Source: Candidatus Saccharimonadota bacterium
Lineage (GTDB): Bacteria > Patescibacteriota > Saccharimonadia > CAILAD01 > BJGX01
Length of the DNA stretch: 64,000 nucleotides
Direction: 5' to 3'
Assembly (NCBI GenBank): GCA_046350735.1
Contig: JAXLZU010000002.1
Location: 16,219-80,218, forward strand
Made by a program: the position numbers and the translations under genes. A model generated the notes under the pieces. It was not told the origin of the DNA and did no database searches. It worked only from the letters and a program-made list of their open reading frames with translations. Shown in pieces: positions 14,217 through 58,253 of this stretch (position 1 is the stretch's first letter; every line of letters starts with the position of its first letter).

Positions 14217-14840
14217 TCATGAGCTGGGAGGTGTGGTGCTTCCGGCAAAGCCAGTACCAGGATGAGGCTCTTGACGTGGAGAAGCATTAATTTGATCAAT
14301 CGTCAAACCCTGTCCGTAACGCGTTAACCTATCGGCACCTGCTTCGCCTGCCTGTTCACCGCGCGTACGCGCATCGGTTAGAACAGATTCTCCTTCGCGG
14401 TCGAGCAGCATAATCAAACGATTCAAGATGGTTCGCGCAAACAGAATGTCTTCATCTTCTTTAAAACCACTCACACCGACGATGATGCCATAGTGTGTGT
14501 CAATGACCGCACCACCCCAGGGAAAAGCACGATGGATTCGCGCTACCAGTCCTGGGTACAAACGAACAGCATCAAGACTATCCAAGCCAGTAGCGAGACA
14601 GATAAGATTCTTACCTTTGGCGTTCTCACGATACCACAGAGTGTCGCGGGGCATACCTGAAACAGATTCTCCAGCGTTAATAACCGTAGCTCCATTGAAA
14701 TCACTACCAGGTTTCTGGGCCACAAGAATCTCAACCCCATAACTGTTTTCTTTCACCAAACGTGTATTCTTCCAGGCGCTAGCCGTTACAGAGATAAATC
14801 GCTGAAGCTCCGAAGAATTTTCTATTGAGATTCGAGTCAT
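14217..14840 (-). CDS. GC-rich orphan gene; possible GlcG/HbpS-like (DUF336) heme-binding-fold protein
   Basis: Locally ~52-55% GC. A likely start is the ATG at 14840 with an aagga RBS; the longer ORF reaching 15011 is probably an artefact. The C-terminal segment GGAVIDTHYGIIVGVSGFKEDEDILFARTIL resembles the DUF336 GGxPI...GAIGVSG...D motif. Confidence 0.4.
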   Translation of the reverse strand: MTRISIENSSELQRFISVTASAWKNTRLVKENSYGVEILVAQKPGSDFNGATVINAGESVSGMPRDTLWYRENAKGKNLICLATGLDSLDAVRLYPGLVARIHRAFPWGGAVIDTHYGIIVGVSGFKEDEDILFARTILNRLIMLLDREGESVLTDARTRGEQAGEAGADRLTRYGQGLTIDQINASPRQEPHPGTGFAGSTTPPSS

Positions 14841-15007
14841 ATTGGTCGTCCTTTTTGTAGCAGATATCACGAGACCTTCGTGACCTGGGTATTGCAAAGA
14901 GCAGCTGATTGTATCAGCCCCCGAAACTCGAAGTTTTTTTCGAAACTCAGGGGCTGTCCCGATCCGCCGGTAACGGATCGGGAAATAGTACATGCAAGCC
15001 ATAGAAA

Positions 15008-15250
15008 TCACCCGCGAATACTACGAGACCTGTCGACAATTGAGCAACTAGACTGCATGTGAGCCTGTCGCAACATGTCGGGGCTGGTGTCATAACGAGA
15101 GTCGTAACGACTGCCATAACTAAAGTAATTGTTGAAACCGTCAGGGGTAGCAAACAATGTCTGCTCGCGCTGACCCCGACGGCGCATAAGCAAAATGGTA
15201 GAAACAGTGGCGAGAAGAAGCAGGACAAGAATGCGAGGCTTGCTCAGCAT
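15008..15250 (-). CDS. small membrane-anchored protein (hypothetical)
   Basis: 80 aa starting MLSKPRILVLLLLATVSTILL with an N-terminal TM/signal anchor. The ATG at 15250 has a GA-rich RBS. GC is moderately high. Confidence 0.35.
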   Translation of the reverse strand: MLSKPRILVLLLLATVSTILLMRRRGQREQTLFATPDGFNNYFSYGSRYDSRYDTSPDMLRQAHMQSSCSIVDRSRSIRG

Positions 15251-15400
15251 TACTTCCCTTTCTTTTTTTAGCCCAGATGAGCTAATCAATCGATTTGATT
15301 GATAGATGGTATTATAATTTAAATATTGAAAAAAGTCAATATTTTTACGTATTGCTTAGTAGTTGCCCACCGACAATTCGGCCTTTAAATAAACCAGTAC

Positions 15401-16432
15401 TTACTTCTGCTTCTGGCTGGGATTTTTGAACTTTTTTGGCTCTTTGGTTCCCTCACCTTCTTCACTCTCAACAACTTCTTCGTCTTTTATAACCTCGCCA
15501 GTTTTAGCGTCTTTAACGCCCTCTGCTGTAAGTTCTACACCTTGTTTGGCTAATTTATCAGCTATAGTTTCAGCTTTTTCTTTGGTTTTTGGTCTTGACT
15601 CAATCTTAGGCGGATTCATAATAGAAAAACTTGATTCGGCTTTAGGTGTTCGACGTTCAGCGTTTGAGCTGGCATTTTGTGTAAACAAGGTATTCACAAT
15701 ATCTTGTTGTTTCGCACCTGCACTCATCATTTGTGCAGAAATAGTTAAACTCTTGGCGGTAGTGTTAGTACCAGTAAAGCCTTTGGTGGCAGCCATGATA
15801 CCCGTAAGAATAGCAGTAGCCACATGATAATCAATCATACCCTGCGCAACAGACTCTATAACCCCTACTAACATCTCACTTACTGAGCTGGCTTGCGGCT
15901 CCACATAATTAACTGACCCATAATTTTCGTTACTACTATGGCAGTCGATATTTATAAGATGCAAACCATCAAAAATAGTAGGATTTTCTTCTAATATCTT
16001 ATCTATTCGACTAATTTGGCTTGCACCTAACACTATTACGAGATCGAATTTATATGCACCGTAGTCAAATGTGGCGTCTTTGGCAGTAAAATTACCAGCA
16101 AATGGTGAGATAACTACCTCAAGATTGTCTTCGTTGGTCTCGTAACGAAGCTTGTCCACTTCGACATTCTTGGTATCTAAGCGAATAATAAAATCACGAA
16201 TACCAGTAAGGTCTCGAGAAATACCCTTGGTATCGAGTATCTGTCGGGCCTTTGGCATGTCGCCTGTAATAATTGCGCTCACCTGCTTACCTGCACGTTG
16301 CAAGATAAGATCTAGTGCAACCATAGCCGAAAGCTGGTCGTTGTTAGGTTCGCGACCAGTAACGAGCAAGATATGGTTGGCTTGCTTAATTAGCTCTACA
16401 GCCTGTTGTTTGGGGGTTAATTCTTGTTGCAT
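15401..16432 (-). CDS. DHH-family phosphoesterase-like protein with degenerate catalytic motifs and K/E-rich C-terminal tail
   Basis: Overall NrnA-like DHH/DHHA1 architecture, but motif III reads DCH (INIDCHSS) and motif I lacks the His. The C-terminal ~80 aa are disordered and Lys/Glu-rich. Confidence 0.5.
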   Translation of the reverse strand: MQQELTPKQQAVELIKQANHILLVTGREPNNDQLSAMVALDLILQRAGKQVSAIITGDMPKARQILDTKGISRDLTGIRDFIIRLDTKNVEVDKLRYETNEDNLEVVISPFAGNFTAKDATFDYGAYKFDLVIVLGASQISRIDKILEENPTIFDGLHLINIDCHSSNENYGSVNYVEPQASSVSEMLVGVIESVAQGMIDYHVATAILTGIMAATKGFTGTNTTAKSLTISAQMMSAGAKQQDIVNTLFTQNASSNAERRTPKAESSFSIMNPPKIESRPKTKEKAETIADKLAKQGVELTAEGVKDAKTGEVIKDEEVVESEEGEGTKEPKKFKNPSQKQK

Positions 16433-16589
16433 AATTGATATATTTTATATTCAATTGGTAATTATAGCAAACATAAGCATATTTGTCAATACTTTTATAG
16501 ATAAGAAGCTGCTATTGTAAGCACAATAACTCACGGTTTTACTAATATAAAAGAAAAAGCTACCTTATTTACTAAGGTAGCCAAAAACA

Positions 16590-17066
16590 TTACCAACCAG
16601 GAACATATATCTGAGAAAAGCCTTCGTAAAGGCGCGGTGGATTAGCTTCGAGCTGACGATGCATGCGCTCTAATGCATGCTCTGGAATTTGTCTGTCTCG
16701 ATCAGTATTTCGCTTCTTACACACATTTAGAGGTGTCTTTAGCCAAATACCCTTAATAAAGCCATCATTACCCATGATGCTTCGAAGATGATCAAGCAGA
16801 CCCATTCTATCGAGTTGCTTAGCATTGGTTGCATCAAAAATTAGAACTTTGCCCGACCTAAGGGCTTCTTCTGCTCGCCTATAAGCAATCCGCCAAACTT
16901 CAGAATTACGGGTCTGGTCTGCAGCGTCACCCGTTAATTCGATACGAATATCATCTGGACACACAACTTGCTGATTAGGAACAATCTTTAGTACTTCTCG
17001 AATATATGTAGTTTTACCAGAACAAGGAGGGCCAATCATTACGTAAGCACGCATTATCTCGCCCAT
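16590..17066 (-). CDS. P-loop kinase of the polynucleotide-kinase (PNK/AAA_33-like) family
   Basis: Walker A GPPCSGKTT and a DxTN motif (IFDATN), which is characteristic of the T4-Pnk/PNKP-type kinase fold. 158 aa. Confidence 0.65.
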   Translation of the reverse strand: MGEIMRAYVMIGPPCSGKTTYIREVLKIVPNQQVVCPDDIRIELTGDAADQTRNSEVWRIAYRRAEEALRSGKVLIFDATNAKQLDRMGLLDHLRSIMGNDGFIKGIWLKTPLNVCKKRNTDRDRQIPEHALERMHRQLEANPPRLYEGFSQIYVPGW

Positions 17067-17124
17067 CTGCTACTCCCTACTGTAGAGGTGCGAACGGATT
17101 ACAATACTACCAGAAAATTACCAA

Positions 17125-17157
17125 AAAGAAAAACCCCCTCACCACAAAGGTGAGGGG
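17125..17157 (-). terminator. rho-independent terminator (minus strand)
   Basis: Hairpin ccccctcacc/ggtgagggg (17134-17157) followed on the minus strand by TTTTTCTTT. It sits directly after the stop of the 17164-17754 gene. Confidence 0.6.
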
Positions 17158-17163
17158 TAAAAA

Positions 17164-17754
17164 TTAATCCCAATACACAAATGGGTCGCGGTGCTGGGGA
17201 TAATGCTCATCGAGCCAGGCTACGGCTTCCTGTACAGCAGAGCGATGAGCACGGTACCGGACTTTCTTTGCAGACATGTCAGTTCCATGCCCTTCGGCTG
17301 GTATCTCGGCAGAACAAAGAAAGATAGCTTCACCGGTGGCCAGCAGTGCACTGCCGCCATCAGCCACTTCTCTCACAAATTCACGCAGACCATGATCCTC
17401 CAAAATCTCAGAAGGATCCCAATCTCGGACATTGTATCGACAGGTAAGGTACAGAGAAGCCTTGCGGTCGTATGCAGAGCCTTTGTAGAAGATCCTTGCA
17501 CGCTCACGATTGAGCTCATCCACAAGAGCGCTTACACGCGGCTCGAAACTCGGTACCACTTGCCAGCCTGGCGGCAAGATAACATTGAAAAACAGCTCAT
17601 CTTCGCAATCATTCAACACCACGCCACCCGCTACCAGTAACTCTTGGGCGCCAAAAGGCTCCATGGCACGCGGTAGTCTCTGGGTGACGGTCAGCTGAGT
17701 CTGTGCCACCCTCTCAGGATGTAGCACAAAGACATCTTCTGCATCAAAACCCAT
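17164..17754 (-). CDS. GC-rich orphan gene, hypothetical protein
   Basis: ~52% GC. The best start is the ATG at 17754 (MGFDAEDVF...) with a GGAGGAG RBS; the longer track ORF begins at a TTG. No recognisable motif. Flanked by its own terminator and a 228-nt leader containing a strong hairpin. Confidence 0.6.
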   Translation of the reverse strand: MGFDAEDVFVLHPERVAQTQLTVTQRLPRAMEPFGAQELLVAGGVVLNDCEDELFFNVILPPGWQVVPSFEPRVSALVDELNRERARIFYKGSAYDRKASLYLTCRYNVRDWDPSEILEDHGLREFVREVADGGSALLATGEAIFLCSAEIPAEGHGTDMSAKKVRYRAHRSAVQEAVAWLDEHYPQHRDPFVYWD

Positions 17755-18001
17755 TTTACTACCCTCCTCCAAAAGGTGCTTTTACGGGACTTTCCCGACC
17801 AGAACGCTCATAGGTGAAAGCTCTGGTCGATTCACCAGCCCAGGTTTACCCTGGGCTGGTGATGCAAGTAAGCTTCTACATGGGTTATTGAAGCTCTAAT
17901 TCCGCACGCGTACGGCGCAAACCCCTGCCTAGTTCGTCTTTTAAGGTGGTTATCGTTGTTTTTGGCTCATTGTTAGAACCTCAACCCATAGATAACCCGT
18001 G

Positions 18002-18076
18002 TGCACCGTGCGAGATTTGAACTCGCGTTACAAGGTTGAAAACCTCGCGTCCTAGACCAGGCTGAACGAACGGTGC
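18002..18076 (-). tRNA. tRNA-Glu (anticodon TTC)
   Basis: I folded it by hand: a 7-bp acceptor stem GCACCGT/ACGGTGC, D-arm, anticodon stem CGAGG/CCTTG with loop TTTTCAA, and T-arm GCGAG-TTCAAAT-CTCGC. CCA is not encoded. Confidence 0.88.
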
Positions 18077-18095
18077 GAGATAGCAAATCTCGTTG

Positions 18096-18167
18096 TACGC
18101 CCCGTGGGATTCGAACCCACAACCTGCGGATTAAAAGTCCGTTGCTCTGCCGTTGAGCTAGAGGCGC
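18096..18167 (-). tRNA. tRNA-Lys (anticodon TTT)
   Basis: I folded it by hand: D-arm TAGCTCAACGGCAGAGCA, anticodon loop CTTTTAA, and T-arm GTGGG-TTCGAAT-CCCAC. The acceptor stem has two G-U pairs. CCA is not encoded. Confidence 0.85.
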
Positions 18168-18303
18168 GTGCCTGATGACTCAGGCTACAAACCAAAACGA
18201 TACTGTTTTGGTTTGCGAAGGAGTGTTGCGGTATAGGCAGTTAGCCCACTCTGCAAATCAGCAGATAAGCAGAGTGGGCTTTAAGCCACAACCACAACAC
18301 GAG

Positions 18304-18679
18304 TGGAGCTGGGGGGAATCGAACCCCCGTCCATGAACCTTTCACTTTCATTCGCTACGACCATTCCCAAATTTCGGCTTTGTGGCCACCTTGGAGTTGG
18401 GTCTCCGCACCATCTAGTCTTTGCTAGAAGTCAGGCTGTCTTTGCAGCACGTCATCCGTCTTTCCGAATGTCAATCTCCACTTCTGTTGCCAGGCTGTGG
18501 TGATTTGGCCCCGTGCGGCATTGCTGCTCACGATGTCTCTCGACGTTACCCGATCAGGGATCAGGCGGCGGCGAGAGCGGGCGCCGGTGCGGCGTCTCTT
18601 TGGGTTCCCCGTTTAACGAGTCTGAGAAACTCGGGTCGCAAATGAAGCGTCAGTATCCATGTCGAAACCGATCAGCCCC
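18304..18679 (-). ncRNA. ssrA: tmRNA (SsrA)
   Basis: 5' end GGGGCTGATCGGTTTCGAC... and 3' tRNA-like end ...GGGGGTTCGATTCCCCCCAGCTCCA. An internal reading frame gives GCC GCA CCG GCG CCC GCT CTC GCC GCC GCC TGA, i.e. tag ...AAPAPALAAA*. Length 376 nt. Confidence 0.9.
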
Positions 18680-19986
18680 ATTAGTCGTCTTAGGCGGAAA
18701 AACGTAAGACGGCCAAGGAGACTGACTGGTTAAGGCTTATGGTTACTTTATTTATAGAAAAAATCCAAACCCTGTAGTTTGGAATAATTATGTACTCAAT
18801 GTGCATATGGAATGATATTAAATTATTCATCCCAACCACAGGCCTCAAATATAAGAACTCTGGTCGGGATCCATCAGGGAACCCGAAGGTTTCCTGATGG
18901 AAAACGGATGTGCCGCATCCGGATGGTCGTTATTAGACTTGGCACTTGGCGTGAACTTTTCCTGGCGAGCTGCAGCTCGGTTCACAAAGGCTTCCGTTTA
19001 AGCCTTCACCTTATATCCTACCGGTAATGCGAGTCCACGCTGTGGAGTTCGCCAGGGCCGCCTCTTAATAGAGGCCCATACTAGGTATGGCGACCAGGAT
19101 ATGGCATGAACGTTTTCGATTTCGAGTGGGGGGGTAGGAACATCATGCCTTGCACCCGTGTCCCACTCTATCTCTGCCTTACGGCTTCGAACATCCCACC
19201 ACACAGGCGGCGCTCAATCTTAACATTACTGCTAAGAGAGCTGCCTGCCCATGTGGCGGCGAGCCAACAGATCTTGTTTGAAGCGCCATAGGCCATCACA
19301 GCCACAGGCGTCCGGAGACAAAATCTGTTATCTAAGCCACACAAGCGTTCTCCAGACCATCGGATTGGGCTTTCTTTACCCTCTCCACCTTTTTGCAATT
19401 CCCCCACTTTCGTGGTAGTCCAATTAGGGCTAGGGTCGTCTTCGACGTCCCGGGCGTGGTCTTCTCTACACTCCTGATACAAACGTTTTTGTCCGCCTGT
19501 ATCGGGCACCATGTCGCAGGATGCCTCCCGCATTCTGGCGTGTTTGGCTGGCGATTTAGCTACAGCAAGCCGGCATGCATCGCTCCGATCGTGTCGGTCT
19601 GTCGCGCATGGCCTACAGTCCCCCTGCAGCAAGGTTTCTCATTTCGGTCGTACCTACTTTTGAAGAAACCTAACTTCGTACTTAAGGTGCTAGGCTTGCG
19701 CCCAAATGCCCTGCTTGCTAGCTAGCCACCAATGTGCTCTTTTTTATTTAAATATTTAGCACTGGTAATTTGCCAGAAGCAAAGCAAGGCAATTGGACAC
19801 AAGTTGTTAAGCTGTTTCGCTCTTTTAGAGCTCATCAGGATAAGTACTCACTTATCGACAGCTCCCCTGGCAATATAGCCAGGGGTTCTTGGGGGCTTGT
19901 TACAGCCCTAACGGCTCCAAGTGCCGTGAGAAATTCTGTTACCAGGCTTTCTCGTGAGCTTTCGCTCGCCCTGTAGCTGAAGCCGG

Positions 19987-20184
19987 CTACCCGGCCGCCA
20001 TCATCAGCTCCAGCTCGTCCTGGGTCATCTCGCTGTGTGCGAGCTGATCCACCCGGAACGGGTGGATGAAGGTGCTCTGGCGAGCCACCATGGTGCTGGT
20101 GGTGCTGGCGGTGGCGACGGGCTGGCGCAGCTTGCGCCGCCCAGCGCGATGGCGCGCTGACTTCTGCTTGGAAAGCTTTGACAT
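19987..20184 (-). CDS. very GC-rich (~65%) small basic protein, hypothetical
   Basis: 65 aa, MSKLSKQKSARHRAGRRKLRQPVATASTTSTMVARQSTFIHPFRVDQLAHSEMTQDELELMMAAG. The ATG at 20184 has a GGAGGA RBS 7 nt upstream. The long upstream extension in the ORF track is implausible because it is AT-rich and out of character. Confidence 0.45.
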   Translation of the reverse strand: MSKLSKQKSARHRAGRRKLRQPVATASTTSTMVARQSTFIHPFRVDQLAHSEMTQDELELMMAAG

Positions 20185-20336
20185 GTACAGGTCCTCCCTC
20201 GGGTACAACACCAGGTCTACGGTGTACTGTTTGGTAGTATAGCAAATATAATAATTAATGTCAATAGTTATTAACATTTTATTTATAAAATATCTATTTA
20301 TATCTGATATTTTTTATTATTTTATGTTTATTAGCA

Positions 20337-20367
20337 ATAAAAAAACCGTTTTCAGTACAGAAAACGG
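20337..20367 (-). terminator. rho-independent terminator (minus strand)
   Basis: Hairpin ccgttttc-agtacag-gaaaacgg overlaps the stop of the 20352-20699 gene. It is preceded on the plus strand by A9, which is a T-run on the minus strand. Confidence 0.5.
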
Positions 20368-20699
20368 GTAAAGTATGCTTCGGGCAAGAATGGCCGGATC
20401 ACCGCCAGTGTGGCACGCAAAGCTGCAACCACTGTTGCCACTTCATCAATCGACACATTCCCAGCCTTATGGAGACTCCACACATTCTCCACAATACTGC
20501 ACATACCTAATACATATGCGTAGCACTCGTGCTCGTCTAATAGGTTGATACCCTGCTCTTGCATGGTATCGAGAATAAGCTGATGATGGTCCTCAACCGG
20601 GCCAATGGATGCATTGATATGATTTGCCTGGAGAGTTTCGAGAAGGTCTACAACCAATTCCCAACGAGTAGAAAACTCGGTTACACCCGGCTTTGTCAT
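20352..20699 (-). CDS. hypothetical protein
   Basis: 115-aa ORF with a terminator directly at its stop; no motif recognised. Confidence 0.5.
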   Translation of the reverse strand: MTKPGVTEFSTRWELVVDLLETLQANHINASIGPVEDHHQLILDTMQEQGINLLDEHECYAYVLGMCSIVENVWSLHKAGNVSIDEVATVVAALRATLAVIRPFLPEAYFTRFLY

Positions 20700-23794: not shown

Positions 23795-23796
23795 TA

Positions 23797-26778: not shown

Positions 26779-26892
26779 GGGCTCTGTGACACCAGCAGGG
26801 CCCTTTTACTATATAATTGACATATTATAATTAATATGATAGTATAATTGGGTCCGAAGCATAACCCCGACTGAATATCAGGAGGAAGTACC

Positions 26893-27483
26893 TTGCCAGT
26901 AGCACCCGTGATGTTGCAGTACTGGTTTCGACAAGAAAAGCAGATCCCAACCTACCTTCGTGGCCTCGAGTCGCGCGAAGATCATCTTGGATTCGATCTC
27001 TCAGCTGCGCCGGGCGATGAGTTAATCGCGAAGACGCATGGTGAAGCAATTGACACCTCTAGCCTGCACGAAGAACTGCTGGCTGGTGGTCTCTTGCTGA
27101 CTCATGCGAGTCGAGTTGATCGCATCTTCAGCGCAGATGAGTCTCTCGACGAGCGCTTCTATTACGTATTTCGCTTTCACTATTTCCCCGAACAGACTGC
27201 TGTCCCTCGCGAAGGCGTCGACACCGAGCAGCTCGTGCTGAGTCTCGAGGAGATCAACAAGATGGCATTCTGGGGCGTACGTGCCGATCTCAACAACGGC
27301 AGGTATGGCCCCTGGATCTCGGTGAGCTGCAAGGGGCGCGTTCAGCGCTACACTGCAGAAGACCTGTCGCGTCCAGAGATGCGCAACATCTATGATGCAC
27401 GTGGTGACAAGATCGGTTCGGCTCCGGTAGCCGCCGATCGCGTGCTGCATTATCTGGGTGACAATCGACTCAGTCTTAGTTGA
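26893..27483 (+). CDS. GC-rich orphan gene, hypothetical protein
   Basis: ~55% GC. TTG start at 26893, 8 nt after an AGGAGG RBS. 196 aa with no recognisable motif. Followed by the hairpin ggctgcaac...gttgcagcc. Confidence 0.55.
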   Translation: MPVAPVMLQYWFRQEKQIPTYLRGLESREDHLGFDLSAAPGDELIAKTHGEAIDTSSLHEELLAGGLLLTHASRVDRIFSADESLDERFYYVFRFHYFPEQTAVPREGVDTEQLVLSLEEINKMAFWGVRADLNNGRYGPWISVSCKGRVQRYTAEDLSRPEMRNIYDARGDKIGSAPVAADRVLHYLGDNRLSLS

Positions 27484-27517: not shown

Positions 27518-27541
27518 GGCTGCAACAGCAATGTTGCAGCC
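27518..27541 (+). terminator. possible terminator hairpin
   Basis: A 9-bp stem ggctgcaac/gttgcagcc followed by a weak U-tract (atcttta). Confidence 0.3.
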
Positions 27542-48431: not shown

Positions 48432-48520
48432 TACTAGTGCGCTAGTATAACCGAAATAAGCATAAATTTCTAGGGCAATGTGTCACATCGTGCTTACAAA
48501 AACAGTTATAATAACATTAC

Positions 48521-50074: not shown

Positions 50075-50101
50075 AATCCCCCTAGCTAATACTAGGAGGA
50101 A

Positions 50102-50434
50102 CTATTTTCTCGTTAGTGCCGAGTAGGGTGATTTTCTCTGATGCGAATTATAAAAAAGTGCATCAATAATCTTATCTAGATCTCGCATAGGTATGGTTAT
50201 TGAATTCGCATGCATCACTTGCCTACAATCATCATCCTTACAACGATGCTCTTCACAGGTTTTATGCGATACTGCATTAAGTACAAAGATAGTCTCACCA
50301 TCTTCTTCTATTACGGTCAGAACCAACTCGCCAAACTCACCTGCCCTCAACTGATCAAGATACATCGGAAACAACCTGGCCAGCGCAAGAGCTTTTTGGT
50401 CGAAATCTTCACTTATATCAGAAACACTGCTCAT
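50102..50434 (-). CDS. hypothetical protein with Cys cluster
   Basis: 110 aa containing a C-x4-C-x5-C motif (CEEHRCKDDDC). Confidence 0.4.
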   Translation of the reverse strand: MSSVSDISEDFDQKALALARLFPMYLDQLRAGEFGELVLTVIEEDGETIFVLNAVSHKTCEEHRCKDDDCRQVMHANSITIPMRDLDKIIDALFYNSHQRKSPYSALTRK

Positions 50435-50673
50435 TTATCCTCCAAGGTGCGATCATTCGGATAATTATAATACCATTTTTACAAAAAATATTCAATAAAA
50501 AAGCCCTAGAATTAACTAGAGCCAAGGGTCGTCATCGCCAACATTCCAGCTACTCCAGCCAAAATGTTTCGTAGTATTTTTCTTTGGTGTAGTCTGGCTC
50601 TTCTTCTTTTTTATCATCCAAGTGCCAAAGATTACAAAGGCTGTTCCTAACCCAAAATAGAGCTTTTTGCTCT

Positions 50674-50793
50674 TCATCTTTGCTTATTCTGTCTTTGAAT
50701 GGCTCGCGTATCTGCCTGTGGCGCTCGAGCAACAACAAAAACAACAGCAGCAACAAAAGAAACAAGCATAGCTACAAAGATTCTCTTCTTCAT
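50674..50793 (-). CDS. possible 39-aa membrane/signal peptide-like small protein
   Basis: The ATG at 50793 has an AAGGG RBS: MKKRIFVAMLVSFVAAVVFVVARAPQ.... It overlaps a TTG-start 71-codon track ORF in another frame. The locus contains CAA/CAG-rich repeats. Confidence 0.25.
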   Translation of the reverse strand: MKKRIFVAMLVSFVAAVVFVVARAPQADTRAIQRQNKQR

Positions 50794-50865
50794 ATTTCAC
50801 CCTTTCGCCATGGCTTGTAGGTACTCGCAATAGAATACCAAAAAAACAGATTGTTTACAATAAAG

Positions 50866-51195
50866 TTACTCGTTTGTGTCTATTAAGAAAATTCGATGGA
50901 AGAACCCACCACGCTCCTGAAGCTTCTTCTCCTTAACTTCTTCTACCTGATCCATATCGCCATCTTCAAACAGAGCTAATGCAGCGAGTACTTCACGAAT
51001 ATCTGCTCGTTCTTCACACCGGGCCTCGGGTGTCTCAGCTTCTAAATATTCAGCAACTTCTTCTTGTAGCTTCTTGCGTAATTCCTGATAGTATTCATCA
51101 TCATCCAGTTTGCGAGTCTGGCTAGCAATTCCCCTTGCTGCCAAATAGTCCGGAATCTTATCTCTTACTAATTTATTCCAAGACTTACGAGCCAT
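50866..51195 (-). CDS. MazG-like nucleoside triphosphate pyrophosphohydrolase
   Basis: N-terminal KLVRDKIPD motif typical of the YpjD/MazG-like all-alpha NTP-PPase family. Confidence 0.55.
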   Translation of the reverse strand: MARKSWNKLVRDKIPDYLAARGIASQTRKLDDDEYYQELRKKLQEEVAEYLEAETPEARCEERADIREVLAALALFEDGDMDQVEEVKEKKLQERGGFFHRIFLIDTNE

Positions 51196-51252
51196 AACAA
51201 ACTCCTTCGTTTTGAGGTGCCTATTTCAGTCTGAACCCAAATTTATCTGCTT

Positions 51253-51993
51253 TCAAGCATTGCCTTTTAAATACGCCTGTCGCTTGGCTTCTGGAAACTT
51301 TTCTATAGCATAACGCAACATGGTACGAGGCATAGTTTTGTAGTGCTTTTTTAAAAACAATTCTTCAACTTCTATACCTACACTATTACCTACCTCTCGT
51401 AACATCCAACCAACAGCTTTTTGTATTAAATCGTGCTCATCGTGTAAAAGCAGCTCTGCGATAGAAAAGGTTTCGTTAATATCCCCCATCTTTATAAAAT
51501 AAAATGTCGACATTATAGCAATGCGACGCTCCCAAATAGATTTTGATTTTGCTAACTTGGTGAGTATATGTATTGTTTGTTTGGATGGCGATTGCTTCTG
51601 TGCAAAGTTATTCCACAAATACACACTGACTATATATGGTGCCGAGCTATCTACAATATCCCAATTATTTATATAGATTGTATTAGCCAAGTAGAAATCA
51701 TAAATTTGCTTCTGTTTCTTTGTATCGGCAGTTTTAAATTGTTCTACCAATATTATTACTGCTGTTAGGCGATGCTCATGCACCTTGCTCTTAAGTAGAT
51801 TCTTTATTTCTCTTAAGGGCAGGTCTTTATATAGCTTGGCAACTTTTCGCTGTTGGGGTACTGTTACGCCTATAAAAATATCGCCTTCGCCATACTGGCC
51901 TTTTCCTGTTTTAAAAAACCAAGCAGAGTTATTAGCGCGCTCTACATCTGCAAGTTTGTCTAGATCGTTTATTACCGACTTTGCGGTACTCAT
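51253..51993 (-). CDS. DNA alkylation repair protein (AlkC/AlkD-like HEAT-repeat glycosylase family)
   Basis: 246-aa helical-repeat protein with AlkD-family N-terminal conservation. Confidence 0.6.
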   Translation of the reverse strand: MSTAKSVINDLDKLADVERANNSAWFFKTGKGQYGEGDIFIGVTVPQQRKVAKLYKDLPLREIKNLLKSKVHEHRLTAVIILVEQFKTADTKKQKQIYDFYLANTIYINNWDIVDSSAPYIVSVYLWNNFAQKQSPSKQTIHILTKLAKSKSIWERRIAIMSTFYFIKMGDINETFSIAELLLHDEHDLIQKAVGWMLREVGNSVGIEVEELFLKKHYKTMPRTMLRYAIEKFPEAKRQAYLKGNA

Positions 51994-52082
51994 AAATACT
52001 TTGTATACCTTTCTTTAGTTATTAGGCCGGATTAACTCTACAGACACTAACTTACTATCTGTTATTAGTAACTTACCTATAG

Positions 52083-52316
52083 TTATTTTGTACCCCACTC
52101 AATCCTACTCCATATTCTCTCATGCACATAGTAAATAATTGTTCCGCTTATAGCTGTTATTCCAGTAATAGTTGTGGCATCGGCCAAACGACGAGTTGTT
52201 AAGAAACTAATTGTAAAGATAGAGATAATAATAACAATACGATACGTAATTGCTTTGGTAATCGATCGGGTATACGTTTCTTGTGCACTACGCCTTAATA
52301 ACTGTGATGTTTTCAT
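52083..52316 (-). CDS. small membrane protein
   Basis: 77 aa with two TM helices; its start overlaps the upstream stop. Confidence 0.35.
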   Translation of the reverse strand: MKTSQLLRRSAQETYTRSITKAITYRIVIIISIFTISFLTTRRLADATTITGITAISGTIIYYVHERIWSRIEWGTK

Positions 52317-52954
52317 TTAATAATAAACTGAATCGCTTTTATTAACTCAAAAATCCCGATAATGCCGAAAATAGCTGCAATAATGTAACGGCTGTTTTTG
52401 TTAACCGAATTTTTTATAGCGTTAATTCTTTTTGGTGAATGGATAAGTGCTAATAAAATTGGTGGCACAATAGCAGGAATAAGAGAGAAAAGTACCATTA
52501 CAATAAGTAGTTCTATTTTTACAAAAGTAGAATAATAACTGGCAACATGAGCTGCTGGAACATACATAATAATTGTTGAGGTATTTAGTATCATAAAACC
52601 AAAACCTACACTAAATGCACCGCCCTCGCTAATTACTCGTTTTGTATGATGTTTTTTGGGTTTGGCAACAAAAAACTGATACAGTGCAAAACCGATGAGA
52701 AAAACCCCAAGTAGTAAATCGATACGTGCATCTGTAAGTGTATATGTGCTGCCAGGCGAAACTCTTGATAACAAGAAAAAGATAATAAAACCGATAATAG
52801 TAATGGCTGTTGCGGCACCAAGTGTAAATAGCGCCGACTTCACATTAGCAGCTTTTTTTTGGCTTGCCACTAGAGTGGCTATGGTAAAAATTAACGGGCT
52901 TACTGCCGAAGCAAGTGCAAAAGGTAAAATATCTATAATGAGACCAACATGCAT
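52313..52954 (-). CDS. polytopic membrane protein (hypothetical)
   Basis: 213 aa with ~6 TM helices. Confidence 0.5.
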   Translation of the reverse strand: MHVGLIIDILPFALASAVSPLIFTIATLVASQKKAANVKSALFTLGAATAITIIGFIIFFLLSRVSPGSTYTLTDARIDLLLGVFLIGFALYQFFVAKPKKHHTKRVISEGGAFSVGFGFMILNTSTIIMYVPAAHVASYYSTFVKIELLIVMVLFSLIPAIVPPILLALIHSPKRINAIKNSVNKNSRYIIAAIFGIIGIFELIKAIQFIIK

Positions 52955-52966
52955 ATGGTTATTGTA

Positions 52967-53413
52967 CTATTTTTTGTTACCAAGTGCTTGTGCTAGGACA
53001 TTTTTAAGTGTTTGTCTATCTTTTGGCCACCAAATCTTATCTATAAATTTATCTAGTTGTAGCCATAAATAATCAGTACTCTCTTCATTCAACCGAATAG
53101 CCTGGTTATAAGTAGTAACCAAAAGAAATGCTTGTTCTTGAATTTCTGTATGAGTATCTTTGTTTGAAATATACGAATGTATTATTGGTAACTTAATAAG
53201 GGTGATGTGCGAATTGATACCTGTCTCTTCTTGCACCTCTCTAATTGCTGCTGTTTCGAGTGGCTCACCAGACTCTACGTTGCCTGTCACTACATACCAC
53301 CTATCTCCTCCATGTCCTAAATGCGGGGCATTTCGTCGTGTCAGCCAATCATAATGGCTTCCGTGTGGTCGAGCAATAAAGACCATTACTTTTTGCTTAG
53401 TATTCATACACAT
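52967..53413 (-). CDS. NUDIX hydrolase
   Basis: Nudix box GNVESGEPLETAAIREVQEETGI. Confidence 0.8.
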   Translation of the reverse strand: MCMNTKQKVMVFIARPHGSHYDWLTRRNAPHLGHGGDRWYVVTGNVESGEPLETAAIREVQEETGINSHITLIKLPIIHSYISNKDTHTEIQEQAFLLVTTYNQAIRLNEESTDYLWLQLDKFIDKIWWPKDRQTLKNVLAQALGNKK

Positions 53414-53464
53414 ATTATACGCTTAAGAAAAACGACCATCCATTATCGGATGGTCGTAATAAAT

Positions 53465-53707
53465 TTACTGCTTCTTGTTGTAAATTTCAGCAATTCGACT
53501 ATCAATCTCACGTATTTCCTTTGCCAGTTCGATCTTTCGTCGCTCGAGAAAGTGAAGGCGCAACGTGCCATCAAAATCAGGATCGACGTCGTTCTTTTCT
53601 GGCTGATCTATATTGGTTATCGTCACTGCATTCACCTCCTTGGCGAGTAGTAAGGTGTGACGAGAAGGTACGCCCCTCTTGCTCTGTACGACAGGCATAC
53701 TGTGCAA
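53465..53707 (-). CDS. hypothetical protein
   Basis: 80-aa ORF with a coiled-coil-like C-terminus. Confidence 0.4.
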   Translation of the reverse strand: MHSMPVVQSKRGVPSRHTLLLAKEVNAVTITNIDQPEKNDVDPDFDGTLRLHFLERRKIELAKEIREIDSRIAEIYNKKQ

Positions 53708-53767
53708 AGTGGCTGCTACTGCGAGATGAAGAGATTGTACGCTAATCTGTAGAATAATGCAAGTACC

Positions 53768-54064
53768 TTATCGCAGGGGTGGTAGAGTTGCAGTAGCTGT
53801 AAGATACTTTTGGCGAAACTCGACAAACTTTTTCTGTTCTTTATGTGCTATGGCTTGCAAAGAAAGAGCTCTTGGACTATTTTTACCCGACTTCTTTATC
53901 TCTTCGTGATAAGCCTCAAAAGCTTCCCAAAATGATACAAACGCAGCTTGCATCTGGGCACCTACATACAAAACATCTATTGGTCGCAGAGATTCAGGCA
54001 TGTTTACTCCTTCGTTCTGAGGTACTAGCATTAGTATACTAACTAACCTGCTACTTGCAAGCAA
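53768..54064 (-). CDS. hypothetical protein
   Basis: 98-aa ORF; the start may be the internal MPESLRPID. Confidence 0.4.
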   Translation of the reverse strand: MLASSRLVSILMLVPQNEGVNMPESLRPIDVLYVGAQMQAAFVSFWEAFEAYHEEIKKSGKNSPRALSLQAIAHKEQKKFVEFRQKYLTATATLPPLR

Positions 54065-54102
54065 TTGTTCGGCTAATGTTTGTAAGATGATATACTAAAG
54101 GT

Positions 54103-55281
54103 ATGCGTACTCAACCACTAGCAGACAGACTGCGGCCACAAAAACTAGGTGATGTAATTGGGCAAAAACATCTTATTGGCCAAAACCAATTTTTGCGAAC
54201 AGTTATAGAGAAGGGTCAGCCTGTGAGTATGGTATTGTGGGGCCCACCCGGAAGTGGCAAAACCACATTGGCTCGTATAATTGGAAGTAGTGCAAATTTT
54301 GAATTCAAAGAAATTTCGGCAGTTACTTCTGGACTTGCTGACGTAAAAAAAGTTATAGAAGAAGCTAAGAATAATCTCAAAGCTGGTCGACAAACCATAC
54401 TGTTTGTCGATGAAATTCATCGCTTTAATAAGGCCCAACAAGACGCATTTTTGCCCCATGTAGAAGCTGGTACTATTATTCTTATAGGCGCGACTACCGA
54501 GAATCCAAGCTTCGAAGTTATTGGTCCGCTTCTTTCTCGCTCGCGTGTGGTAGTACTCGAACCACTTAGTGCTGCAGACATTACAGAGATAATTTTGCGA
54601 GCACAAAAAGAACTCAAACTTTCTAAATTAGAGCCCGCTGCAGTTGAGCTATTAGCTGAGCTGTCTGGCGGCGATGCCAGAGTAGCACTTGGCGGGCTAG
54701 AAGCTGCAGCAGCAATTTCTCATAAAACTATTACTACCAACGATATTAAACAGGCAATGCAAAAGGTCGGGGCTAAGTATGATAAAGGTGGTGAGTATCA
54801 TTACAATCTTATTTCTGCCTACATAAAATCGATGCGTGGCAGTGATGTTAACGCTACACTGTATTATCTGGCACGTATGATTAATGGTGGTGAAGACCCT
54901 AAATTTATTGCTCGCCGCAATATTATTTTTGCATCTGAAGATATTGGGCTAGCTGCACCGGCTGCACTCAACCTGGCAGTGTCGACTTTTTTAGCAGTAG
55001 AGCGCATTGGTTTGCCCGAGTGTAGTTACAACTTATTTGCATGCGCGACTGTATTGGCAAAAAGTAAAAAATCTCGATCAGTCGCAGATGCAATGAATAA
55101 CGCATTCTCTATTGCTAAAAAATATCCAGATGCAGCTGTACCTCTACATCTACGTAATGCTCCAACCAAGCTTATGAAAGATCTTGGTTATGGCAAAGAT
55201 ACAAAATGGCAATCTGGCTTTAAACATCCCAAAGGCTTTTTGCCCGATGAGTTGCAAAATATCAAAATCTTTGAGGACTAA
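54103..55281 (+). CDS. rarA: replication-associated recombination protein A (AAA+ ATPase RarA/MgsA)
   Basis: Walker [15 protein letters not shown], Walker [10 protein letters not shown] and a C-terminal MgsA domain. Confidence 0.93.
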
Positions 55282-56300
55282 ATAAACTTCTTCTTTATTC
55301 CGTAACGAAATGCTAAATAGCCTGGTAGCGTAGGAATCCAAAAAGTAATGGTACGAAATATCATTACACCTGCTGTGGCCGAGGCCGAATCTACACCTAC
55401 TAGCATTAAGCCGCCAATGAGTGCTGCTTCTACGGTACCGATTCCTCCTGGTGCCGGTCCGCATGCACCAATTGAATTAAATATTAGATATACAAATACT
55501 GACTGCCAAAACGGAATATGCACACCTACTGCTACTAAGCAAAGGTAGAAAACTACGTTAGTGCAGGTGTAACTCAGCAACATTAGCCCGAGTGATGCAG
55601 CACTTTTTGCTGGAGTCTTGAGAATTATCCTAAATGAATGGAGTATTTCTGCAACTTTTTCTTTTATTTTTTGCAGCCAGCCAAATGCTCTCACAATTAC
55701 ATAAACTGCCAAGATAAGTATTGCTATTAAGAAGAAAAGCTTCCAGCCAGGTGTAAAGCTTGGTTGAATACCAACCGATTCGAGACCACCCCCAAAGATT
55801 ACTACCGGAATAAAATACAATAACCAAGCCGTAAAATAGACTAGTTCTACAGCACCCACATACCCCAGTCCAGCTTCTAAGCTATAACCAGCCACAACTG
55901 CGTATCTGTACATCAACCCAGGGCCACCCAGACCTGCAGGAAATATTTTGTAAGTGAAGGCCATAGCAAGCTGAATAAGACCAGTTTGCTTAAACGGCAT
56001 AGGCTTGGTTGCAAGTACTGTCATGGCAACACCAGTAAAAACAAAGGTAAAACAAAAAATACACGCGGCTAATAAAAGAATTGCATCGTTAGCACTCTGA
56101 ACAATAGTTACAATTTGCTGCCAGTTTTCTACCAGTGGCCACAGCAATACCAGTAAGAAGCCAAACAATAACGTCATTCCGGCCCTATATAACCAGGGAT
56201 GCTTGTGTCCTTTTTGCTTTTGTTCTTGCTTTTTCTTATCGAAGTAAGAAAGCTCTTGGCTAGTGTCGACAGTTTCTTGGTTGGAGACCATTAAAGACAT
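55278..56300 (-). CDS. flippase-like membrane protein (UPF0104/LPG-synthase-TM family)
   Basis: 340 aa with ~8 TM helices and the Gly-rich pattern typical of TIGR00374-like proteins. Confidence 0.65.
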   Translation of the reverse strand: MSLMVSNQETVDTSQELSYFDKKKQEQKQKGHKHPWLYRAGMTLLFGFLLVLLWPLVENWQQIVTIVQSANDAILLLAACIFCFTFVFTGVAMTVLATKPMPFKQTGLIQLAMAFTYKIFPAGLGGPGLMYRYAVVAGYSLEAGLGYVGAVELVYFTAWLLYFIPVVIFGGGLESVGIQPSFTPGWKLFFLIAILILAVYVIVRAFGWLQKIKEKVAEILHSFRIILKTPAKSAASLGLMLLSYTCTNVVFYLCLVAVGVHIPFWQSVFVYLIFNSIGACGPAPGGIGTVEAALIGGLMLVGVDSASATAGVMIFRTITFWIPTLPGYLAFRYGIKKKFI

Positions 56301-56357
56301 GCTAATATTGTAACACTTTTACTGAAGTGCTAGTCTTCGAACGAGGGTTAATTAGAT

Positions 56358-56894
56358 CTAAAACCCAAAGTTGTTAAACTGACTAACGTAGCTACTGACG
56401 CTAGAAATAAAGTTCTTGGCATTTGTAAGAAAGTCGGCCGATACAACAGTGGTCGTGCTAGTACCGTCTGAAAAATTGACCGTCATTTTACGAGTTGGGC
56501 CACCAATTAGGGTTTTGTTTTGAGCATTATTGTTGTAAGTCATTTTTGTACCAACGTTTGATGAGTAGTAAAGATTAACCAACTTATAAAAATCAGCAGA
56601 AGTTAGCGAACAATTACTGTTAATAGTTGTACTGGAAGTAACTACCGAATAAGTACAGCTATCGGCTGTTAAAGTAAGCGTCTTGGTACTTTGATAAGGC
56701 GGTGCAACTGGTCCAGTATAGCTAGTAAAAACAAATGATTTTATCGAAGTATAATAATTTTGCTTTTGCCAATACTTGTAAATTAAAAAGCCACCAACAA
56801 GCAATATTATAAAAACTAAGAAAAGAAATAGTGGCCACCAAGAACGATCTTTGGCCTTTTGATAGCTAGTGTTTGAGGATTTATTCGTTGCCAT
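56358..56894 (-). CDS. secreted/membrane-anchored hypothetical protein, paralog A
   Basis: 178 aa with an N-terminal signal anchor and an S/T-rich body. Similar to the downstream paralog and shares an identical 5' leader. Confidence 0.5.
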   Translation of the reverse strand: MATNKSSNTSYQKAKDRSWWPLFLFLVFIILLVGGFLIYKYWQKQNYYTSIKSFVFTSYTGPVAPPYQSTKTLTLTADSCTYSVVTSSTTINSNCSLTSADFYKLVNLYYSSNVGTKMTYNNNAQNKTLIGGPTRKMTVNFSDGTSTTTVVSADFLTNAKNFISSVSSYVSQFNNFGF

Positions 56895-56914
56895 TATTCT
56901 TATGCTAACACATC
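56892..56914. repeat. 23-nt direct repeat (copy 1) spanning start codon and leader of paralog A
   Basis: cattattcttatgctaacacatc is identical to 57441-57463. Confidence 0.85.
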
Positions 56915-56927
56915 TCAGTAAGCTTTT

Positions 56928-57443
56928 CTACAGACCGCTATTAGCGGGTGCGTAGCTTTTTAACACCTGTACGAATGACTCGACATTTGCCTCGGCGGGT
57001 TCGCTAAAATAGATAGTATTTGAGGTGCCATCTTTATAATACACCCCTAGTAATAATAGTTGGCCTGTAGCAGGTGTGCCTATCTGAGAGGCAGTATTGG
57101 TTGGTAGCGAATTGGTAAAATATGCATTGGTGATAGTGTTCCATATCTGAGAGTTTATAGGACAGTCAATAGTTGTAGCATAATTGTCTTGCGAGGGAGT
57201 TTGAATAACAAGATTGCAACTATTTGGTGTAATAGTAAGGGTTTGACTCACTTGAGAGTCTTCGGCCTGACTGCCGTTATACTTGCTTAATACAAACGAC
57301 TTAATATCATTTGGCGAGTGGTGAGCTCGAATGTAACGAATAGAAAACCCAATGGCAGCCAATGCAATAACGGCTACAATAATTACCACCGTCACAAATA
57401 CCGGATCTTTATACTTTTTTCTCTGATTTTTCTGCTTTGTCAT
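56928..57443 (-). CDS. secreted/membrane-anchored hypothetical protein, paralog B
   Basis: 171 aa with the same architecture (signal anchor, then IKSFV..SKY.GS..., and ...DSC/NSC... motifs). Confidence 0.5.
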   Translation of the reverse strand: MTKQKNQRKKYKDPVFVTVVIIVAVIALAAIGFSIRYIRAHHSPNDIKSFVLSKYNGSQAEDSQVSQTLTITPNSCNLVIQTPSQDNYATTIDCPINSQIWNTITNAYFTNSLPTNTASQIGTPATGQLLLLGVYYKDGTSNTIYFSEPAEANVESFVQVLKSYAPANSGL

Positions 57444-57463
57444 TATTCTTATGCTAACACATC
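57441..57463. repeat. 23-nt direct repeat (copy 2) spanning start codon and leader of paralog B
   Basis: Identical to 56892-56914. Confidence 0.85.
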
Positions 57464-57574
57464 AGATATTTTTTACAATTTGTCTACCACTAAGTCAGCC
57501 CAAGATAGAATTCCTAAATTCTAGTAATAATTTTCTAGCTGTGTTGGTTAGTCTGTAGTACATACTAAATGCTT

Positions 57575-57602
57575 AATAAAAGCCACTCGAAACCGAGTGG
57601 CT
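57575..57602 (-). terminator. rho-independent terminator (minus strand)
   Basis: Hairpin agccactcg-aaac-cgagtggct (57581-57602) followed on the minus strand by TTTTATT. It sits after the stop of the 57618-58253 gene. Confidence 0.5.
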
Positions 57603-57617
57603 GTATTGCCAAATACT

Positions 57618-58253
57618 TTAATTATTTGCTTCTGCAAGTAGCTTTTGGCGGGCTATCCGCTTTTCCCTGGTAGTAAGCCGTGGCAAGTTATACCTAACTC
57701 CTGTACCGTGCAAAACAAATTGTTGTCTATCTGTCTTTTCTGGCTTGCGCCAAAACGCGATTCGGTCTGGTGGGTATGTGGAAACAAGCTCATCGCATGG
57801 CATTGGATTATGGTCGAACCAACTATCCAGCCAGAAACACCCTCTCTGGACTGTCTGATCACCTACCTTCACCCAAACTTCAGCTTTGTAAATGTTGCCA
57901 AAAGCGTCGTTTTGCATAGCGGTAATGCGGACTCGCACTTCTACCGCGTCTGCACCGGCGCGCAGCGATCCCTCTGCGAGATAAACATCAATTTTGTATG
58001 GGTAGTGACAATCTGCCCACCACAGCGACTGATCGTCTGGATTGGCTTCTTTGCGTGCCTCAAATTCCTCAGATGTACCATGCGTATGACACTCGCCTTT
58101 CTGCAAACATTCTTCCCAGCTCGCTACTTTTACGAAGGTCCACTGCTCGTGTACCGTAACTCTGAGCCCAAAGTCCTCTCTAAGGATTTGGCTCAAATTG
58201 GTCACAAACATTGCAGTAGTACGAGGAATTCGAATCTCACTCGTCTTTGTCAT
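57618..58253 (-). CDS. GC-rich orphan gene, hypothetical protein
   Basis: ~50% GC against ~38% neighbours. The ATG at 58253 has an AGGAAGG RBS. 211 aa with no motif recognised. The antisense +ORF 57645-58307 is Cys/Trp-rich junk. Confidence 0.6.
   Translation of the reverse strand: MTKTSEIRIPRTTAMFVTNLSQILREDFGLRVTVHEQWTFVKVASWEECLQKGECHTHGTSEEFEARKEANPDDQSLWWADCHYPYKIDVYLAEGSLRAGADAVEVRVRITAMQNDAFGNIYKAEVWVKVGDQTVQRGCFWLDSWFDHNPMPCDELVSTYPPDRIAFWRKPEKTDRQQFVLHGTGVRYNLPRLTTREKRIARQKLLAEANN

Follow-up and report, generated by a model that had tools for sequence, protein, structure and literature searches.

A hammerhead motif, a large structured RNA and fast-evolving orphan genes in GC-rich patches of a Saccharibacteria genome

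Results

GC-rich loci and their composition

The 64-kb stretch of DNA analysed here, termed the window (contig JAXLZU010000002.1), belongs to a Candidatus Saccharibacteria metagenome-assembled genome (MAG) whose proteins carry the locus tags U0516_, and it comes, as a preliminary description of the DNA had correctly assumed, from an epibiotic lineage of the candidate phyla radiation (CPR). Several of its loci are richer in GC than the genes around them: the protein genes designated A, A2, B, D, E and G, the short open reading frame (sORF) C, pyrH, and a group of RNA genes at 17.8–20.3 kb (Table 1). In the explanation that we favour, and to which we give about an even chance of being right, these patches consist of a structural RNA locus and of fast-evolving, clade-restricted genes in fixed slots, whose GC is kept high by exchange or maintenance and for which the host was not the donor. 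The chief new content is a hammerhead with a large structured RNA upstream of ssrA, the gene for transfer-messenger RNA (tmRNA), a set of cassettes led by a hairpin, and gene D, whose product has no fold match.

Composition was compared with that of the 52 clearly coding neighbour genes in the window, which have a GC content of 0.409 ± 0.027 and a GC content at third codon positions (GC3) of 0.339 ± 0.035 with a maximum of 0.411; the overall GC of the window is 0.419. The preliminary description had listed five isolated GC-rich loci, namely A with A2, B, C, D and E. All of them are outliers, with GC3 z-scores between 2.1 and 15.6, although the 52–55% GC given for 14217-15250 was slightly too high (0.49 for A and 0.51 for A2). 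Not all of them are isolated, as the DNA from 17.1 to 20.3 kb is one continuous GC-rich block (0.49–0.53) made up largely of RNA genes, and the list was incomplete: an equally high GC content is also found in pyrH (GC3 0.54), G (GC3 0.50) and several small ORFs. The proposed comparison of codon usage and GC3 with core genes was run and both measures differ; synonymous-codon log-likelihood z-scores for the listed GC-rich loci range from -2.3 to -11, in agreement with their status as GC3 outliers. The GC-normalised dinucleotide signature deviates only in D (0 of 400 random chunks as extreme) and C (0.04).

Shine-Dalgarno (SD) sequences, sigma70-like promoters and terminator hairpins were found at most of the GC-rich loci, with B lacking a promoter of its own, so that the SD sequences and terminators ascribed to these loci are indeed present at most of them. 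A, A2, B, C, D, E and G are orphans without a match in Pfam, NCBIfam, PHROGs or PADLOC, and B, D and E are annotated by NCBI as hypothetical proteins. The ORFs in the corresponding slots of sister loci have no Pfam match either, and a subset was also without a match in PHROGs. Thus, the view that the GC-rich loci lie outside housekeeping families holds for the listed orphans and fails for pyrH (43374-44135, annotated as uridine monophosphate kinase), which shows that GC-richness is not confined to orphans. From ratios of nonsynonymous to synonymous divergence (dN/dS) of 0.11–0.36, the protein loci appear to encode real proteins under purifying selection.

Three further ideas on the set were rejected. 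Paralogy among A, B, D and E was ruled out, as BLASTP found none. An origin of the orphans from defence systems or a prophage was discarded because there were no PADLOC or PHROG matches and no integrase, and D had no match in the PDB or in libraries of viral structures. The motif CGAASCAW in the 5′ untranslated regions (UTRs) of D, E and pyrH is a chance occurrence: it is found 14 times in the window and is not kept in orthologues of D.

An RNA unit with a candidate ribozyme upstream of ssrA

Read along the minus strand, the RNA locus consists of a promoter, an SD sequence with sORF C, a structured region of ~110 nt, the hammerhead, an RNA of ~1.04 kb, a terminator and the promoter of the tmRNA gene. 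The third locus of the preliminary list (19987-20184) is therefore no isolated gene: it forms the 5′ cistron of an RNA unit that contains the candidate ribozyme. The hammerhead would cut the sORF mRNA from the ~1.04-kb RNA downstream, and the high GC content of the 17.8–20.3 kb region would stem from the GC-richness that folded RNAs have in an AT-rich genome.

The hammerhead motif of the window scores 43.9 bits against RF00008 (E-value 2e-7), under the gathering score of 48.5, and the syntenic sites in three relatives (labelled, like all loci of relatives used here, by L numbers) also remain under that score, with 45.0 bits in L004, 39.7 in L019 and 33.5 in L003. The motif has the core CUGAUGA/GAAAC/GUC and three helices, and the core is intact in five genomes. 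Stem I shows A-U, G-C and G-U exchanges among the window, L004, L006 and L019. In L003 stems I and II have a wholly different sequence and the structure of minimum free energy (MFE) has the canonical shape; the MFE structure of the isolated 60-mer is an alternative fold in the four other hammerheads. In relatives whose TrmB is 59–60% identical, tmRNA and hammerhead are absent from this place. Hammerheads of Saccharibacteria, CPR or Patescibacteria did not come up in full-text searches of the literature.

The ~1.04-kb RNA segment contains no conserved ORF, and a 154-aa ORF at 19168-19632 was dismissed as spurious because it is not conserved in L004. Nucleotide identity to L004 and L006 reaches 89–91% at 19540-19970, compared with 67–84% in the flanking genes. 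MFE z-scores are -4.8 for the first part of the RNA (RNA1), -4.0 for the variable middle, -6.8 for the last part (RNA2) and -4.3 for sORF C with its UTRs, whereas ordinary genes range from +0.8 to -3.8. The RNAalifold structures include compensatory pairs; for RNA2, 26 pairs are changed on both sides compared with 8.6 ± 2.3 in shuffles and 1–10 in slid controls, in a test with four sequences and a structure derived from the same alignment. The 3′ end of RNA2 is a copy of the 37-nt hairpin described below (18866-18830). No Rfam family other than the hammerhead matched the structured RNA even at E-values up to 10, and it has no resemblance to RNase P RNA, signal recognition particle RNA, 6S RNA, group I or II introns, ROOL or GOLLD, all of which were considered and rejected. 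Two conserved motifs of RNA1 are absent from IMG/VR viral contigs, and the whole RNA region is unmatched among INPHARED phages and PLSDB plasmids.

sORF C is a real coding gene. Its homologues in L003, L004 and L006 have 65–69 aa, a length that is held at 34% identity, and its GC3 lies between 0.79 and 0.89 across four genomes, in the order GC3 > GC1 > GC2. In L019, promoter and ribozyme are the same but flank an unrelated sORF of 77 aa (GC3 0.82). Tentatively, the unit of promoter, sORF, hammerhead and RNA upstream of ssrA might be an undescribed ribozyme-processed large non-coding RNA (ncRNA) of a Saccharibacteria subclade which, together with the hairpin-led ORFs, would form a small cassette-exchange system with the hairpin as its junction; we regard this combined proposal as possible but doubtful.

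A similar arrangement was noticed in a more distant relative. The region 11153-12180 of L014 has a promoter, a 72-aa sORF and a hammerhead-like core (CUGAAGAG..GAAAC) that Rfam does not report; then come a short hairpin with an AU loop and an ORF of 150 aa (GC3 0.79), for which the public gene call (288 aa) lies on the opposite strand. In addition, a related Saccharibacteria contig (L017, 866-1049, minus strand) gave a sub-threshold match to a T-box leader (43 bits, E-value 3e-6).

Hairpin-led cassettes and links to mobile elements

The leader of B contains a 37-nt hairpin of the form CCCGACCAGAG-loop-YUCUGGUCGGG, followed by a CGGG/CCCG mini-hairpin. Copies are located at 17793-17829 and 18830-18866 in the window, at 356 and 1075 in L002, at 14141 in L003, at 13992 in L004 and at 2581 and 3033 in L006. 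The hairpin precedes B in the window, L003 and L002, the next ORF after B in L002 and an unrelated gene in L004. In L006 two copies bracket a 450-nt insertion with an ORF of 110 aa (GC3 0.59), whose product shares 43% identity with a protein of a Paenibacillus phage and resembles proteins of Bacillus and Microcystis phages. The hairpin may be a cassette junction or a leader for RNA processing or regulation.

Remote matches of B were obtained by tblastn with the orphans concatenated: a Rhizobium leguminosarum replicon (E-value 1e-7), the Clostridium botulinum plasmid pNPD1_1 (2e-6), Brevundimonas jumbo phages (3e-4) and gp100 of the Gordonia phage VanLee (4e-3). The targets are hypothetical proteins collinear with B, and they have in common with it the motifs D[ED]LF..LP.GW, FYKG..YDR.A and, at the C-terminus, AWL..YP.H.D..AYWD. 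Together, the mobile-element and hairpin evidence suggests that the region beside the tmRNA and tRNA genes behaves like a small cassette site, probably fed from a pool of phage or plasmid type.

Turnover of A, B, C and G among relatives

The core genes of the window are closer to those of L004 than to those of L003 (92 and 79% identity for DHH, 88 and 81% for Fpg, 94 and 90% for PolA, in this order), and the same holds for D (92 and 65%). The pattern is reversed for A (no homologue in L004, 70% in L003), B (none and 64%), C (34 and 69%), G (47 and 82%) and the ORF x20832 (38 and 74%). The A slot between DHH and TruB holds a homologue in L003 and is empty in L004, where an intergenic gap of 77 nt is found; for A2, no homologue was present in any fetched locus. 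The B slot is occupied in L004 by an unrelated gene of ~275 aa with a GC3 of 0.68 (the listed ORF has 320 aa) and in L002 by B and two further GC-rich ORFs. B has only five close homologues in a search of 5.8 billion proteins and a dN/dS of ~0.11; its predicted structure was unusable, with a predicted local distance difference test (pLDDT) score of 42. In distant relatives the slots between core genes hold other GC-rich orphans, for instance three ORFs with GC3 of 0.77–0.83 between DHH and TruB in L017. These comparisons show that close relatives have lost, replaced or swapped A, B, C and G, and they support horizontal replacement within the clade or within a pool of mobile elements.

A 246-aa gene of normal GC content without a Pfam match lies between AAA_33 and DHH in L003 (15421-16161) and L004 (15530-16270) and is absent in the window (16432-16590). 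As this gene was lost or gained between relatives, turnover is not limited to GC-rich genes. In L001/L003 (GCA_023261595.1), DHH (~16250-17306) and the B homologue (14216-14790) are split by frameshifts, which could reflect pseudogenisation or assembly errors.

Gene D beside polA

An exhaustive HMMER search of 1.84 billion representative sequences yielded 19 representative clusters of the D family, all of ~200 aa. Homologues with identities of 35% and 27% are also convergent to polA within dnaG-rpoD-polA synteny; D was found beside polA in both distant members whose context was examined (P0042 and P0047) and in the orthologues of sister genomes. The homologue in L012 has a GC content of 0.53 and a GC3 of 0.59, compared with 0.42 and 0.33–0.36 for its neighbours, and with values of 0.47 in L003 and 0.52 in L004 the GC3 of D spans 0.47–0.59 over four genomes. 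The dN/dS of D is 0.15. Its dN exceeds that of PolA both to L003 (0.26 vs 0.07) and to L012 (0.94 vs 0.16), meaning that D evolves 4–6 times faster. The AlphaFold2 model of D is of high confidence (pLDDT 92) and found no fold match in the PDB or BFVD.

The synonymous divergence (dS) is ~1.1 to L004 and saturated to L003 and L012 (proportion of synonymous differences, pS, 0.72–0.77). We used a two-rate amelioration model with an equilibrium GC3 of 0.34, in which the excess decays as exp(-(u+v)t) and dS = 2 x 0.449 x (u+v)t. By this model, less than ~6% of an initial GC3 excess is left once dS has reached 2.5, i.e. at most ~0.04 even from a GC3 of 0.9. D lies 0.25 above this equilibrium in the window as well as in L012. 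An excess that is unchanged across saturated dS is no unameliorated relic; it is actively maintained or repeatedly renewed. Synteny and composition together show D as an old resident that was inherited in place with its GC excess, the latter being long-lived and maintained.

Within D, a block of 300 nt (27081-27380) is 95% identical to L004, compared with ~83% for the surrounding 5 kb; either gene conversion occurred here recently or the nucleotide sequence itself is constrained. A palindrome, CTGATATCAG, at 26868-26877 abuts the SD sequence of D, its last G being part of the GGAGG, and is conserved in L003 and L004; the copy in the window has an extra A (CTGAATATCAG). This palindrome may be an operator or a translational hairpin.

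Gene E beside an aldo-keto reductase gene

For E, five homologues with identities of 54–100% were found among 5.8 billion proteins, and it follows an aldo-keto reductase gene in every context seen. Its GC3 is 0.49 in L010, where the neighbours mostly have 0.26–0.38; L010 is a near-identical strain and the only relative in which the GC excess of E was measured. The dN/dS of E is 0.36. On synteny, E is an old resident with vertical inheritance.

Between the window (47626-60655) and L010, blocks of 99–100% identity alternate with blocks of 62–86% (54226-55025, 55426-55625, 56026-56825 and 57626-58025). The 3′ half of E falls to 62% identity within flanks of 99–100%, the two strains being 96% identical. 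This strain-level mosaic indicates frequent homologous recombination in the population.

The GC-rich pyrH gene

The pyrH product matches Pfam AA_kinase far over the cutoff of that family (E-value 8e-25) and uridylate kinases in the PDB (1e-55), and with 240.3 it is marginally below the TIGR02075 cutoff of 243.9. Its best PDB relatives are not specifically actinobacterial and the Mycobacterium tuberculosis enzyme is not the closest of them, so that import from Actinobacteria was rejected. The gene is solitary on the plus strand, with a rhodanese/TrhO-like gene on one side and small genes on the other, instead of lying in the usual rpsB-tsf-pyrH-frr context.

Table 1. GC-rich genes, RNA genes and signals in the window
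Feature	Position	Strand	Properties
gene A	14217-14840	-	orphan, ~207 aa; ORF open up to 15011; GC 0.49, GC3 0.41, z 2.1
gene A2	15008-15250	-	80 aa, hydrophobic N-terminus; GC 0.51, GC3 0.54, z 5.9; promoter 15339-15311
gene B	17164-17754	-	orphan, 196 aa; GC 0.526, GC3 0.49, z 4.4; terminator 17157-17135
37-nt hairpin ahead of B	17829-17793	-	CGACCAGAG..UUCUGGUCGGGA; structured leader 17793-17862
13-bp perfect hairpin ahead of B	17862-17832	-	structured leader
tRNA-Glu(UUC)	18001-18076	-	Rfam and ARAGORN
tRNA-Lys(UUU)	18095-18167	-	Rfam and ARAGORN
tmRNA (ssrA)	18301-18679	-	RF00023, 103 bits vs gathering score 47; ARAGORN tag AAPAPALAAA
structured RNA, unannotated	18764-19806	-	RNA1 19806-19540, variable part 19540-19290, RNA2 19290-18830, terminator 18783-18764
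type III hammerhead motif	19809-19864	-	RF00008; predicted cut between 19857 and 19856
conserved structured 3′ region of sORF C	19975-19865	-	~110 nt, before the hammerhead
sORF C	20184-19987	-	65 aa; GC 0.657, GC3 0.88, z 15.6
promoter TTGACA-17-TATACT	20264-20236	-	near-consensus; heads the sORF C unit
gene G	20352-20699	-	orphan, 115 aa; GC3 0.50; promoter 20769-20741, terminator 20367-20346
gene D	26893-27483	+	196 aa; GC 0.553, GC3 0.59, z 7.4; promoter 26817-26845, terminator 27518-27541
pyrH	43374-44135	+	UMP kinase; GC 0.53, GC3 0.54
gene E	57618-58253	-	orphan, 211 aa; GC 0.48, GC3 0.46, z 3.6

Discussion

Origin of the GC excess

Apart from the RNA locus, our explanation views A/A2, B, G, D and E as small, mostly autonomous transcription units that would sit in fixed slots between core genes and encode rapidly evolving proteins restricted to this Saccharibacteria clade. 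The slots may be hot spots of recombination or cassette exchange, drawing on a GC-richer accessory pool common to Saccharibacteria and their mobile elements. The GC content would then be kept high either by alleles being replaced again and again, to which GC-biased gene conversion may add, or by selection at synonymous positions.

Several points weigh against this explanation. The whole analysis covers one 64-kb window and flanks of at most 10 kb. The dinucleotide signature of E, pyrH and A2 is like that of the rest of the genome, which fits native genes better than imported ones. Homologues in mobile elements are limited to B, whose E-values are modest (1e-7 to 4e-3), and one sister cassette; the concatenated tblastn search returned no phage or plasmid homologue for A, D, E, G or C. 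No integrase or mobility gene was seen near the cassettes: the called genes around the array in the syntenic loci that bear a Pfam domain are all core genes (TrmB-like, AAA_33 kinase, DHH, TruB, S15 and PNPase), and the others, without a Pfam match, are uncharacterised. Genes of normal GC content hold the other blocks that recombined between the window and L010, so that recombination by itself does not raise GC. Finally, several forces could keep the GC high; as a rough split, we would give the largest share to recombination or import, a slightly smaller one to selection and the smallest to something else.

Purely native, vertically inherited genes would explain part of these observations. In this alternative the GC is held by gene-specific selection, for example on rare codons ending in G or C that throttle translation, on mRNA stability or on amino acids. 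It agrees with the persistence of the GC excess over saturated divergence, with the native-like signatures mentioned above, with the presence of the same trait in the essential pyrH, and with shifts from Lys to Arg and from Ile to Val across the GC-rich gene set. However, it does not account for the discordant similarities, the replaced slots and the unrelated cassettes at the same site, nor for the phage and plasmid homologues of B and the L006 cassette. Folding z-scores of the mRNAs of A, B, D, E, G and pyrH (+0.7 to -2.8) lie in the ordinary range, which led us to reject mRNA structure as the cause of the GC content of the protein genes. High expression was rejected as well, since ribosomal-protein genes have a low GC3 (0.25–0.33) and a high GC3 is thus no signature of it. 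Overall, we consider a purely native origin possible though rather unlikely. An artefact, in the form of chimeric joins or contaminant reads in the MAG or of spurious ORFs over non-coding DNA, is extremely improbable. GC-rich DNA does give long ORFs in several frames (19168-19632, 19835-20245 and 57645-58307), and a public annotation of L014 places one gene on the wrong strand. Yet the truly spurious ORFs overlie the RNA locus and none of them is a listed gene, dN/dS is well below 1 with conserved ORF lengths, and D yields a confident predicted structure. The same gene order recurs in sister MAGs and, across different samples, in three or more independent assemblies (L007-L009), and a total of eight contigs carry the same PolA protein; the presence of PolA with adjacent D on contigs from several independent samples means that this arrangement is no assembly artefact.

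The preliminary description had explained the GC-rich genes by repeated, piecemeal acquisition from a high-GC donor, most obviously the actinobacterial host. In its strict form, with each gene a recent and still unameliorated import, we regard this as improbable. The atypical composition, the presence/absence variation of A and B among relatives, the actinobacterial-like GC3 of C (0.88, with the same ranking of codon positions) and the weak match of B to an actinophage protein, VanLee gp100, are what such imports would be expected to show. On the other hand, D and E stand at the same loci down to identities of 27% and 54%, D keeps its GC excess at that depth, and at saturated synonymous sites no relic of an excess should be left. 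For B and for E, no more than five closely related homologues each were found among the 5.8 billion proteins, the D family comprises only proteins of ~200 aa next to polA where examined, and pyrH is not closest to the M. tuberculosis enzyme. The comparison with sister genomes which had been suggested splits the set accordingly: A and B are absent or replaced and C is of a different type in L004, whereas D and E are syntenic. Same-locus homologues of similar GC, named in advance as evidence against acquisition, exist for D; for E the homologues are in place, with the GC excess known from the near-identical strain only. The host-import model is thus largely refuted for D and, on synteny, for E. 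Repeated horizontal acquisition as such retains its value for A, B, C and G, given their turnover and the phage and plasmid homologues of B, and does not apply to D and E as residents in place. The actinobacterial host as donor has essentially no support: the Gordonia phage match is the only one, and the better matches of B or the L006 cassette come from Alphaproteobacteria (phages and the Rhizobium replicon), Clostridium (a plasmid), Paenibacillus, Bacillus and Microcystis. For B, D and E, searches of large protein databases without taxonomy labels gave no actinobacterial donor, the close homologues being internal to the clade.

Likeness to known systems

Phage morons are autonomous promoter-gene-terminator units of deviant composition. 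Like them and like tRNA/tmRNA islets, the loci described here have an atypical composition, promoters and terminators of their own and a content that differs from one close relative to the next; the tmRNA-tRNA cluster has B directly on its 3′ side, and proteins of the B type occur in phages and plasmids. In contrast to islets and morons, there is no integrase, no att duplication of the tRNA or tmRNA 3′ end and no surrounding prophage; single genes are scattered among core genes, they are GC-rich and not AT-rich relative to the host genome, and D and E are stable residents over deep divergence. With integron cassette arrays they have in common a repeated imperfect hairpin at the junctions of short unrelated ORFs, the lack of a promoter in B (the only one whose upstream region was examined) and the extra ORF between two hairpin copies in L006. 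Unlike in integrons, no IntI-type integrase was seen nearby and each genome has only 1–3 cassettes; the hairpin, placed ahead of each ORF in the manner of a 5′ leader and with a mini-hairpin and an SD sequence behind it, could just as well serve in RNA processing or regulation.

The hammerhead resembles the type III hammerheads of bacterial and phage intergenic regions in its core, in its three stems with compensatory changes and in its position between two parts of a transcript. It differs from them by a score just under the gathering threshold and by its location on a Saccharibacteria chromosome directly upstream of ssrA. ROOL and GOLLD are large ornate bacterial ncRNAs near tRNA genes. The structured RNA is similar to them in being several hundred nucleotides long, strongly structured, free of ORFs and situated beside tRNA and tmRNA genes, a comparison that we offer as a lead only; it does not match their Rfam models at E-values up to 10, and it has a variable middle as well as an sORF and a ribozyme ahead of it.

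Implications for Saccharibacteria

Saccharibacteria are obligate epibionts with tiny genomes, in which lineage-specific orphans are the main candidates for interaction with the host. Among the orphans of the window is a subset that stays in fixed slots, changes at several times the rate of core genes and is exchanged among close relatives. As D, the orphan followed to the greatest depth, keeps a GC3 0.15–0.25 higher than the genome equilibrium through saturated divergence, CPR genes of deviant composition are not simply readable as recent transfers from the host. The loci provide a concrete test set for the upkeep of GC in individual genes of an AT-biased genome, be it by gene conversion, codon selection or continual import. 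Independently of this, the conserved hammerhead and the unannotated large RNA beside the tmRNA gene may interest RNA biologists; D, with its confident model and without a fold match in the PDB or BFVD, belongs to the same by-product. Finally, the persistently host-like, high-GC coding may be selected because the products or transcripts of the orphans act in the interaction with a high-GC host.

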